This document shows positions 5,958 to 7,875 of a DNA stretch of 39,455 bases, one piece after another. The notes beneath the pieces were generated by a model that searched no databases, had not been told where the DNA came from, and saw only the letters and a program-made list of their open reading frames with translations. The stretch comes from a virus. Lineage: Duplodnaviria > Heunggongvirae > Uroviricota > Caudoviricetes. A program made the position numbers and the translations under genes. Each line of letters opens with the position of its first letter. Within the stretch, counting starts at the first letter, position 1. The stretch lies in IMG/VR virus record IMGVR_UViG_2526164602_000034. One strand, given 5' to 3'.

Positions 5958-5984
5958 ATCCCTGAAACCTTGGTTTACGGGATA
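5958..5984. other. gix-like crossover site (near gin)
   Basis: ATCCCTGAAACC-TT-GGTTTACGGGAT, two 12-bp inverted half sites around a 2-bp core, similar to the gix/hix consensus; shares the 13-bp TTGGTTTACGGGA with the site at 7333-7358 in inverted orientation. Confidence 0.75.
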
Positions 5985-6328
5985 CTGTAAACAGGGCCGC
6001 GAATGCCCTGCCATCGAACGGAGCGGCTGTTGCAGCGAATAAACTCGCCACTCCAAGAAATATTAATGGTGTCCCATTTGACGGAACGCAGGATATAAAT
6101 ATTACATCGGGGATGACGCAGTCTGTGGCTGACTCACGTTATGTTCAAAGCATTCGAAGAGGTTCAAGGTCAACGATTGGAATGCAATATAATATTTTTG
6201 AGGTTCCTGACGGATGCGTACTTACAGGGCTTGATGTCGCTGGTGATGGTAATGCAACGGTAACCGCATATTATCGACCTGTTCAGTTTCTGATAGATGG
6301 TTCGTGGAAAACAGCTTCCAGCGCATAA
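5972..6328 (+). CDS. Alternative tail-fibre C-terminal cassette (S'v-like), no own start codon, expressed only after inversion
   Basis: The frame opens directly at the crossover core and reads NLGLRDTVNRAANALPSNGAAVAANKLATPRNINGVPFDGTQDINITSGMTQS...YYRPVQFLIDGSWKTASSA, paralogous to residues 194-321 of the minus-strand fibre. Confidence 0.65.
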   Translation, partial: GLRDTVNRAANALPSNGAAVAANKLATPRNINGVPFDGTQDINITSGMTQSVADSRYVQSIRRGSRSTIGMQYNIFEVPDGCVLTGLDVAGDGNATVTAYYRPVQFLIDGSWKTASSA

Positions 6329-6407
6329 AAGTGCAGTAGTTCAAAAAACAGATTATCTGAATAAATATATGATGATTTTGTCTTTTCAACAAAAACAAGG
6401 TGAAATA

Positions 6408-6929
6408 ATGGAGCTTATTAACGTAAAACGATATTACCCGGAACACAAACCCTATGGTGAGGATGTTCAGTATTTCCAGAGTGAGGACGGAAGGGATTTT
6501 TATGAATCTATCCCGCTTTTCACAAAGAAATACAAACTCTGTATTTCGCCTGTAACGGGTATTATCTGCTCTGTTGCTGAAGATGTCTCTGCTTTATATC
6601 CGGCAGGTTTTACTGTTGTTGAAGTGGACGAACTGCCGGAAGGTGTGAATATTGACGGTAACTGGCAGTTTTCTGATGGCCTGATATCAAAGGTGCCGGT
6701 AAACTGGAAGACGGTTGCTGAAAAGCGCCGCTCATCGCTGCTCCAGGAAGCCAACGAAACTGTGGATGACTGGAAAACGGAATTAAAACTGGACATGATT
6801 AGCGATGAAAATAAATTACAGCTGACGCGCTGGATGGCGTATATCCGACAGCTTAAAGAAATGCACTTTAATGATATTGCCAGTGAGGGGCATTACCAGG
6901 CGATTCCCTGGCCGGAAAAACCGGAATAA
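6408..6929 (+). CDS. Tail fibre assembly protein (Tfa / Mu U-family chaperone)
   Basis: MELINVKRYY...GFTVVEVDELPEG...LTRWMAYIRQLKEM...WPEKPE matches the Mu U / lambda Tfa pattern (GFSVVEV, WPQKPE); RBS AAGGTGA; follows the S'v cassette on the same strand. Confidence 0.8.
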   Translation: MELINVKRYYPEHKPYGEDVQYFQSEDGRDFYESIPLFTKKYKLCISPVTGIICSVAEDVSALYPAGFTVVEVDELPEGVNIDGNWQFSDGLISKVPVNWKTVAEKRRSSLLQEANETVDDWKTELKLDMISDENKLQLTRWMAYIRQLKEMHFNDIASEGHYQAIPWPEKPE

Positions 6930-6934
6930 TTCAG

Positions 6935-6965
6935 AGGGTGCATTCAGCACCCTTTTCTGTGGTTT
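6935..6965. terminator. Bidirectional terminator between convergent tfa and tail-fibre genes
   Basis: AGGGTGC-ATTCA-GCACCCT followed by TTTTCTGTGGTTT on plus; lies in the 34-bp gap between the tfa stop (6929) and the fibre stop (6964). Confidence 0.5.
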
Positions 6966-7875
6966 ACACTGAACTTACCGTTCTCCAGGCATTATTAATA
7001 TAAATCTGAACCGGGCGATAATAGACCCCACCGATATTGTCCGCAGACCGGGAGCCGGTTTCCTGCACGTTAATTCCGGAAAGCATACAACCGGAAGGTG
7101 CGCTGTAATTCCATGACATTTCATTGCCTCCGGGTGAATGATAGCTCTGTGCTCCAAGCTGAACATTCTGTACATACCGGCCATCTGCGGTTGACTGCGT
7201 CATTCCTGACGTGATGTTGATATCCAGCGTTCCGTCAAAAGGAACACCATTAATATTTCTTGGGGTGGCGAGTCTGTTTGCTGCCACGGCGGTTCCACCC
7301 GATGGCAGGGCATCAGCAGCCTTATTTACCGTTTCCCGTAAACCAACGTTATCGATAAAAGCGCCTTTATCCGGAATGTCTGCGCCGTTCTGCTCCCTGC
7401 GCAGGTAACGGTTATCACCTTCGCTTTTGCTGTAAACATCCAGATTATTACGGGCGGTTCCCGCATTCTCCAGGTCGGCAAGGTTCTGATCCTTCGCCAG
7501 AGCATTAACGTCACCGGGACCAAGACTGTTTTTTGTGGCAAGCGCCCCAAGACCAAGATAACCACGGGCAAGACGCTGGGCTTCCGCACCGGCATCAGCA
7601 ATTTCTTTCAGGTTGTTTTTCCGGGAAAAGGCATTCGCAGCGATAATGGCTTTAATGGACAGCGTAAGCTGGTTTAACTGCGCCTTATCCGGCTGAATAC
7701 TGGCTTCAGCCAGAATATTCAGCAGTTCGGCCTGGAGAATATTCAGCCAGTCCTGACCAATCCAGCTGATACCTTTTTGTCCGTCACCTTCGGTAAACCA
7801 GGTGGTGGTATTACTCTGCGCCGGTGCCAGCGCAGGCATATTCGCCACGCCGGAATTATTATCAACATGGAACAT
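6964..7875 (-). CDS. Tail fibre protein (constant N-terminal part plus currently joined variable tip)
   Basis: ATG at 7875 overlaps the stop of the upstream gene (TAATG); C-terminus GVYYRPVQIYINNAWRTVSSV resembles the P2 H / Mu S fibre tip; crossover site falls at codons 191-200 of the track ORF. Confidence 0.8.
   Translation of the reverse strand: MFHVDNNSGVANMPALAPAQSNTTTWFTEGDGQKGISWIGQDWLNILQAELLNILAEASIQPDKAQLNQLTLSIKAIIAANAFSRKNNLKEIADAGAEAQRLARGYLGLGALATKNSLGPGDVNALAKDQNLADLENAGTARNNLDVYSKSEGDNRYLRREQNGADIPDKGAFIDNVGLRETVNKAADALPSGGTAVAANRLATPRNINGVPFDGTLDINITSGMTQSTADGRYVQNVQLGAQSYHSPGGNEMSWNYSAPSGCMLSGINVQETGSRSADNIGGVYYRPVQIYINNAWRTVSSV
7333..7358. other. gix-like crossover site inside the tail-fibre gene
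   Basis: TTCCCGTAAACC-AA-CGTTATCGATAA; left half matches the reverse complement of the site at 5958-5984; core AA is complementary to core TT of the partner, as expected for inverted sites. Confidence 0.7.

Follow-up and report, generated by a model that had tools for sequence, protein, structure and literature searches.

A tail-fibre inversion switch with a single, uncoupled assembly gene in the Mu-like prophage Sp18 and in related phages

Tail-fibre inversion switches are a textbook example of programmed host-range variation, in which each alternative tip is accompanied by its own chaperone. The stretch of DNA analysed here (IMG/VR record IMGVR_UViG_2526164602_000034; 39,455 nt, hereafter the window) is the Mu-like prophage Sp18 of Escherichia coli O157:H7 Sakai, and our subject is its invertible tail-fibre segment, located next to the DNA invertase gene gin, which contains two fibre tips and only one tail-fibre assembly gene (tfa). 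Positions 5300-8000 are 100% identical to Sp18 and also to many other Shiga-toxin-producing E. coli (STEC). Along the window the Sakai gene order is ECs_4993 (679-aa hypothetical protein), ECs_4992 (DNA-invertase), ECs_4991 (a short 'tail fiber protein' fragment), ECs_4990 (tail fiber assembly protein) and ECs_4989 (phage tail fiber), followed by gp48-, gp47-, gp46- and gp45-type Mu baseplate genes. The remaining window contains a complete Mu-type genome (repressor, transposase A/B, Mor, C, lysis, head and tail genes), with com/mom located at the genome end close to the switch, and the switch region is the equivalent, in this prophage, of the Mu G segment. Sp18 is predicted to be intact. Asadulghani et al. 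scored its host-specificity function as atypical and already noted its invertible host-specificity region in 2009; Sp18 DNA is efficiently packaged in Sakai, whose prophage has the same orientation as the window (orientation A), and the number of chaperone genes is not discussed in that work (PMC2669165). The existence of a switch in Sp18 was known, then; its lone chaperone gene, uncoupled from the tips, represents a genuine variant of such switches, one that is conserved and recurs.

The fibre start was taken as the ATG at 7875 (303 aa), matching Mu S and the RefSeq annotation. The gene is composed of a constant N-terminal part, which lies outside the invertible segment, and the expressed tip A; tip B, silent in this orientation, and tfa are encoded on the opposite strand (Table 1). 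Tips A and B share 57% identity (E 3e-48), and the frame of tip B is open and in frame. Tfa belongs to the Pfam family Caudo_TAP (PF02413; 1.9e-18, 67.3 bits with a cut-off of 22.1) and was aligned to Mu U (PDB 5yvq_B) over residues 17-147 (E 2.3e-15), and no second Tfa-like open reading frame (ORF) was found in the whole 39.5-kb window. The stop codons of tfa (6929) and of the fibre gene on the opposite strand (6964) are 34 nt apart, with a terminator-like GC hairpin between them. Since only these 34 nt and the hairpin separate the convergent stops, tip A has no co-oriented chaperone. Thus, the first-pass annotation was right in describing a silent paralogous tip followed by the only tfa, and an expressed tip followed by nothing but a convergent one. 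It had also considered that the silent frame might carry disabling mutations; there are none, and this intact frame is the expressed tip in 23 genomes (see below). The hairpin is likely a bidirectional terminator that would move with the segment when it flips, and the related locus L013 has an equivalent hairpin.

Table 1. Coordinates of the Sp18 switch (positions in the window) and of comparison loci (positions in the locus named)
Feature	Sequence	Position	Strand	Description
gin	window	5343-5903	-	Din-family serine DNA invertase, 186 aa, catalytic Ser9 context YIRVSTNDQ; ECs_4992
gin-proximal gix-type site	window	5958-5983		ATCCCTGAAACC-TT-GGTTTACGGGAT, central TT 5970-5971; aligned with Mu gix
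Inverted repeat, left arm	window	5966-6147		Crossover core and conserved 5' part of the tips
Silent tip B	window	5972-6328	+	118 aa, without start codon or promoter; C-terminus of a 295-aa fibre once flipped
Spacer between tip B and tfa	window	6329-6407	+	79 nt, AT-rich (~25% GC)
tfa	window	6408-6929	+	173 aa, Mu U homologue, only tail-fibre assembly gene of the prophage
Hairpin	window	6933-6955		AGAGGGTGC-ATTCA-GCACCCTTT, T/A runs on both sides, between the convergent tfa and fibre stops
Expressed tip A	window	6964-7346	-	127 aa plus stop, orientation of the window; from ORF 6964-7875
Inverted repeat, right arm	window	7169-7350		Second arm of the 182-nt repeat
Fibre-internal gix-type site	window	7333-7358		TTCCCGTAAACC-AA-CGTTATCGATAA, central AA 7345-7346; aligned with Mu gix
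Constant N-terminal fibre part (Sc)	window	7347-7875	-	176 aa, outside the invertible segment; ECs_4989
Crossover-type repeats	L004	6819-6852, 8780-8856, 9190-9223		
Repeats/tips	L119	3812-4051, 5232-5471, 5670-5903		Single tfa
Junction region without gin	L013	3241-3545		Also in L023, L025, L030 and L038

The 13-mer TTGGTTTACGGGA occurs exactly twice in the 39.5 kb, at 5970-5982 (+) and 7334-7346 (-), with a chance expectation of 0.07 and no case of two matches in 100 shuffles. Both copies are the perfect core of a 182-nt inverted repeat with 79% identity, and they fall within two 26-bp sites in inverted orientation, which have identical inner half-sites, different outer half-sites and a shared central dinucleotide (TT/AA). 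Recombination requires the same central dinucleotide in both sites. Aligned to Mu gix (TTATCCAAAACC-TC-GGTTTACAGGAA), the site in the Sp18 fibre gene reads TTATCGATAACG-TT-GGTTTACGGGAA; it falls within the peptide FIDNVGLRETVN, the counterpart of FIQNLGLQETVN in Mu S, where the boundary of the G segment is annotated. Moreover, the distance from the centre of the gin-proximal site to the gin ATG is 67 nt in both Sp18 and Mu. The unique 13-mer pair and the alignment with Mu gixL/gixR confirm the earlier proposal of two inverted gix-like sites sharing a perfect 13 bp next to gin, and the limits given at that time, 5958-7358, are the exact outer edges of the two 26-bp sites. The crossover had also been placed correctly inside the tail-fibre gene, but not at the right codons: it lies at codon 177 and 127 aa are exchanged, instead of codons 191-200 and 128 aa, because the codons had been counted from an upstream ATG (7929) and not from the ATG at 7875. 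The invertase itself has the Pfam domains Resolvase (1.4e-51) and HTH_7 (1.7e-14) and shares 75% amino acid identity with Mu Gin.

In order to look for the inverted form in natural genomes, the flipped sequence was built in silico by recombination at the central dinucleotides (query of 2701 nt) and 5,426 complete E. coli genomes were searched, matches over at least 80% of the query being counted as flipped. Orientation A was present in 182 genomes and the flipped orientation (B) in 23, seven of which matched with at least 99% identity; the best match, H63, was 100.0% identical over all 2701 nt. O157:H7 strains are found in both orientation classes, and therefore the flips must be recent. The annotation of a flipped genome contains a 295-aa fibre ORF, composed of the constant part and tip B, followed by a co-oriented tfa, and there tip A is flagged as an N-terminally incomplete fragment. 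The 1.37-kb segment inverts, both orientations existing in nature joined exactly at the predicted crossover, and in the inverted form the constant 176 aa are joined to the paralogous tip B, with tfa downstream. That a Gin-type segment swaps the fibre tips, as the first-pass annotation had anticipated, is borne out by these public genomes. With the flip, the 127-aa tip A of the 303-aa fibre is replaced by the 118-aa tip B, which presumably changes the receptor and the host range.

The ends of IMG/VR contigs tell the same story. Among the loci recovered with the constant part of the fibre, 11 of 53 contigs end inside the 182-nt inverted repeat (L012, L018, L020, L026, L031, L032, L033, L035, L037, L045 and L052). 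Other contigs start in the repeat or at the crossover (L083, L099, L102, L109, L110, L112, L118, L121 and L143), and many of those recovered with Gin begin 65-122 nt upstream of gin. Contig breaks at the repeat or at the crossover are a signature of cultures holding both orientations in short-read assemblies, so that breaks of this kind could be used as a detector of active invertible segments.

Comparison with phage Mu indicates what the two switches share and where they differ; to call the Sp18 segment reduced, as the first-pass annotation did, would presuppose a loss from a symmetric ancestor. The fibre N-terminus matched Mu S residues 1-191 (E 4.3e-49), the last ~75 aa of tip A matched Mu S 435-503 and the last ~65 aa of tip B matched Mu S 436-504. 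Mu S 435-504 is the distal part of S that was crystallised together with U (5YVQ), the Mu Tfa-fibre complex reportedly described by North et al. in 2019. Among the proteins that end in related tips are P2-like gpH and SfMu S. The alignment with the Mu S and U proteins, which had been suggested as a check, thus shows that the fibre, both tips and Tfa are all homologous to their Mu counterparts. The Mu G segment and the Sp18 switch have in common a homologous Gin, the codon position of gix, the S constant part, the distal tip domain and U/Tfa, as well as the location between a gp48 homologue and the com/mom end. They differ in size, the G segment having 3 kb with variable parts of ~310 aa, as opposed to 1.37 kb with 127 and 118 aa in Sp18, and in the crossover dinucleotide (TC in Mu, TT in Sp18); unlike Mu, Sp18 also has a 679-aa DUF6645/SASA gene between gin and com/mom. 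Whereas Mu has both U and U', with U coupled to its tip by 2 nt, Sp18 has one tfa after a 79-nt spacer. The contrast with the symmetric S-U / U'-S' arrangement of Mu is real, as there are no two coupled tfa genes in the Sp18 segment; each Mu tip has its own Tfa, and in Sp18 both tips, which are ~57% identical, would have to be accepted by the same Tfa. From these homologies, the Sp18 switch is a genuine, shortened member of the S/U system.

Other Din-family systems switch the C-terminus of a fibre as Sp18 does, among them the P1 C segment (cin) and the e14 P segment (pinE; stfP-tfaP / tfaE-stfE). The P1 C segment also has two tfa genes. In e14 the segment of 1797 bp is symmetric, with two tfa genes (tfaP and tfaE), one per tip (PMC12529663); e14 and Sp18 both have a YmfQ/gp48-type baseplate gene upstream. 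In carotovoricin Er, the fibre tip is reported to be switched through an invertible region (10.1101/2023.05.07.539753). Both this system and the multi-site Min of p15B resemble Sp18 in that a Din-family invertase joins alternative tips to one constant part, but Sp18 has only two crossover sites, unlike these multi-site systems. The inversion in CP066032, a Mu-like prophage for which Milman et al. (2023) confirmed inversion by long reads, was considered as being of the same type and rejected, since that prophage is of the symmetric, two-tfa Mu type. The Pectobacterium/carotovoricin-like loci L006, L007 and L060 match only around the crossover motif and were uninformative. No description of invertible segments with one chaperone was found in the literature, where our coverage of the older Min and Cin work is limited.

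To find out how common this arrangement is, the window proteins were compared by tblastn with 60 related loci, and a separate census was made of 80 Gin-linked IMG/VR loci. A first Tfa hidden Markov model missed the P2-like Tfa types and gave false calls of zero tfa, and the census was made with a rebuilt profile. Loci of the Sp18 type have the order constant part, tip, tfa, tip (opposite strand), gin and DUF6645 gene. A diverged type keeps that order, with tips ~55%, Tfa ~61-64% and Gin 81% identical to those of the window, and both orientations are represented in each of the two types. One locus (L034) combines a 98% identical Tfa with a 55% identical tip B, and another (L049), together with loci lacking gin, a 64% identical Tfa with a tip A at 81-91%. 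Tip and Tfa alleles have been shuffled, and therefore Tfa does not strictly co-vary with either tip.

The layout is also found outside these two types. In L004, a prophage of Citrobacter braakii, the fibre is different, and there are a single convergent tfa, a silent tip and three gix-like sites. P2-like segments with one tfa comprise a family in which both orientations are seen (L087-L090, L132 and L142), L130, and L119, which has two silent tips. With their repeats (Table 1), L004 and L119 are multi-tip switches like a shufflon or Min, in which one chaperone would serve the several tips. The census contained many symmetric two-tfa segments as well, for which Mu was the reference. We conclude that the one-tfa layout is conserved, recurrent and widespread, and that it is neither a one-off product of decay nor peculiar to Sp18.

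One-tfa and two-tfa segments differ in what precedes tfa. In every one-tfa family found there is an AT-rich spacer of 51-120 nt before the gene: 79 nt in Sp18, 51 to ~60 nt in the diverged type, 120 nt in a third allele, 69 nt in L004, 95 nt in the L090 family, and 72 nt in L130 and L119. In two-tfa segments, the distance from tip to tfa is -8 to +20 nt, with 2 nt in Mu. Four P2-like loci (L096, L116, L124 and L137), considered as one-tfa segments with a coupled tfa, were rejected because a second, unrelated small ORF follows the silent tip. This ORF (for instance 5407-5685, -, in L124) has 92-94 codons from stop to stop, the protein being likely shorter, and is unrelated to Caudo_TAP; in these loci the other tip has a normal tfa. 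The small ORF may encode a different kind of fibre chaperone. In another locus (L100) the single tfa is also coupled, but the fibre and the layout are quite different.

Derivatives that have lost the ability to invert were also found. In seven contigs, which have five distinct tfa sequences between them, most of gin and most of tip B are missing; the order there is fibre with tip A, convergent intact tfa of 173 codons, ~314 bp and DUF6645 gene, where the ~314 bp contain a remnant of the gin 3'-end and the last ~57 nt of tip B. The deletion junction is identical in all five aligned loci. This common junction implies that invertase, crossover site and silent tip were lost together in a single deletion, the product of which then spread. 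In these genomes the host-range module is frozen in one orientation, with tfa convergent to the fibre gene. The retention of tfa beside tip A after the loss of tip B is hard to reconcile with a Tfa that acts on tip B only.

As to the signals that could drive tfa, the spacer at 6329-6407 is a candidate site. A loose sigma-70 scan returned a candidate with 8 or 9 of 12 matches in every one-tfa spacer, such candidates being common in AT-rich DNA, and in five of the seven spacers one candidate has a -10 hexamer that ends 30-35 nt ahead of the ATG. A 17-mer, ATYCCGCAAARCCYGCC, is present at 21295-21311 and 29213-29229 (-), upstream of the protease/scaffold gene (I) and the lysozyme gene (lys), and may be the recognition element of the Sp18 late activator C. 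A C-dependent late promoter before tfa was considered and rejected: the Mu C-site pattern TTAT-N6-ATAA has no match anywhere in the window, and this pattern may not be the right one, at least for Sp18.

With moderate confidence, we propose that a single, promiscuous Tfa acts on both tips and that its expression does not depend on the orientation of the segment. The first-pass annotation had left the choice between a chaperone acting in trans from its own promoter and an orientation that is chaperone-independent; the comparative evidence leans to the former, because the spacer is conserved and the derivatives without gin keep a convergent tfa. Also in favour of a shared Tfa are the presence of only one Tfa-like ORF in the prophage, the shuffling of tip and Tfa alleles, the recurrence of the one-tfa layout in Citrobacter and P2-like prophages, and the packaging of Sp18 DNA in Sakai, where the prophage is in orientation A (PMC2669165). 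The Gin-type invertase encoded beside the segment recombines the two inverted 26-bp gix sites, one located 67 nt upstream of gin and the other at the junction of the constant and variable parts of the fibre. According to our proposal, the single Tfa would fold both tips, which both end in the distal domain that Mu U binds on Mu S. The tfa gene would be uncoupled from the fibre gene: after the AT-rich spacer it would have a ribosome-binding site of its own and, probably, a promoter that is weak or depends on an activator. In orientation B it would be co-transcribed with the late operon, and in orientation A its own signals would drive its expression, in convergence with the fibre gene.

It must be taken into account that several points weigh against this proposal. 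No promoter was found in the spacer 6329-6407 by a sigma-70 scan at threshold, and the looser scan gave there only a weak AAAACA-17-TATGAT (8/12), which is expected in AT-rich DNA; nor is there a copy near tfa of the 17-mer of the putative lys and I late promoters. Tightly coupled one-tfa segments may have been missed by the Tfa model. In the derivatives without gin, the ratio of non-synonymous to synonymous substitution rates (dN/dS) of tfa is 0.10-0.23, but the remnant is ~97% identical while the dS of tfa reaches 0.43; recombination must therefore have swapped alleles, and purifying selection cannot be dated to the time after the deletion. For this reason we rejected dN/dS as evidence for selection on tfa after that event. 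The ~8:1 ratio of A to B in the assemblies (182 vs 23) could result from clonal sampling with slow inversion, from unequal rates caused by the divergent outer half-sites, or from selection. Finally, the infectivity of Sp18 particles is unreported in either orientation.

Some of these points would suit a Tfa that serves only tip B, tip A folding without a dedicated chaperone. With the segment in orientation A, tfa runs antisense to the late operon without an evident promoter upstream of it, A is the commoner orientation in the assemblies (182 vs 23), and Sakai, with its prophage in A, packages Sp18 DNA (PMC2669165). We regard this alternative as credible but unlikely, since the tips are 57% identical and have a common distal domain, a homologue of the end of Mu S to which U binds, since related tips belong to P2-like gpH and SfMu S fibres, and since derivatives without tip B and gin keep an intact tfa beside tip A, which would be pointless for a chaperone of tip B only. 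The prototypes P2 (gpG) and Mu (U) encode Tfa directly downstream of the fibre gene. We are somewhat more doubtful of the idea that the inversion toggles the tip sequence and the Tfa supply together, the B fibre being made with Tfa and the A fibre with little or none. In orientation B, Tfa may remain at the distal end of the fibre, as Mu U would on S; if the toggle were true, the two types of virion would differ in tip and also in distal cap or infectivity, a layer of bet-hedging that is absent from Mu and P1. Slightly less probable again, in our judgement, is that no cognate Tfa is available in orientation A, so that the fibre depends on Tfa from a foreign prophage or the particles are fibre-defective, the switch being in part an on/off switch of infectivity. 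The genomes of STEC are rich in tfa-like sequences, with up to 8-9 matching places per genome for the queries used here, and the failure of the sigma-70 scan and of the lys/I 17-mer to reveal a tfa promoter, like the missing infectivity data, would fit this possibility. However, the one-tfa layout is present in other hosts and lineages, where help from lambdoid prophages cannot be assumed, and both the recurrent uncoupling spacer and the derivatives locked in A with an intact tfa argue for the use of the phage's own gene.

The remaining explanations deny that the switch has a function or that it exists. One of them is that the segment is what remains of a symmetric G segment like that of Mu, decaying after the deletion of one chaperone and without a current function for the prophage. 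In its favour are the small size (1.37 kb vs 3 kb in Mu, where the variable parts are much longer) and the existence of deletion derivatives of the module. Nevertheless we consider decay very improbable: all ORFs are intact, the layout is kept across alleles with saturated synonymous divergence and occurs with fibres and Tfa proteins of unrelated families, inversion is still precise, and Sp18 has been predicted to be intact, with DNA that is packaged (PMC2669165). As for the view that the repeat is a mere similarity of paralogous tip fragments and that there is no inversion, it is true that most of the 182-nt repeat is coding homology between the tips, but its perfect core coincides with the gix half-sites and with the Mu crossover position, and the exact inversion is present in genomes that match at 99-100% identity. 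The chance that it is correct is negligible, as it is excluded unless all 23 flipped assemblies are artefacts.

A layout that is conserved, recurrent and still flipping implies that a Tfa can be promiscuous across tips with a common distal domain, and that its expression must somehow be freed from orientation; the single-chaperone variant raises a simple question on both matters. Under such an arrangement tips could be added or exchanged without their chaperone, which may be useful in the engineering of host range in phages or tailocins. The prophage concerned is active, Mu-like and widespread in STEC, and the practical stakes are modest.

A Fis enhancer had been suggested in the 5' part of gin. 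A degenerate Fis pattern matched at positions common to the Sp18 and Mu gin genes but was not specific, and the identity to Mu gin at third codon positions (0.75 and 0.55 in nt 1-120 vs 0.33 in nt 361-540) is likewise not specific to an enhancer. Directly downstream of gin, the 679-aa protein (3204-5243, -) has a SASA carbohydrate-esterase domain and DUF6645. Its gene travels with the fibre module in all loci of the Sp18 type, those without gin included, and in L050 and L051 a homologue lies directly after the fibre gene and tfa. This protein may be a second receptor-binding tail protein or one that deacetylates O-antigen. Upstream of the com/mom pair, at ~2000-2060 (-) in the window, there is a GATC-rich palindromic stretch, aatcGATCgtttttgtcGATCGATtgc, which we take to resemble the Dam/OxyR-controlled GATC cluster of the Mu mom promoter.

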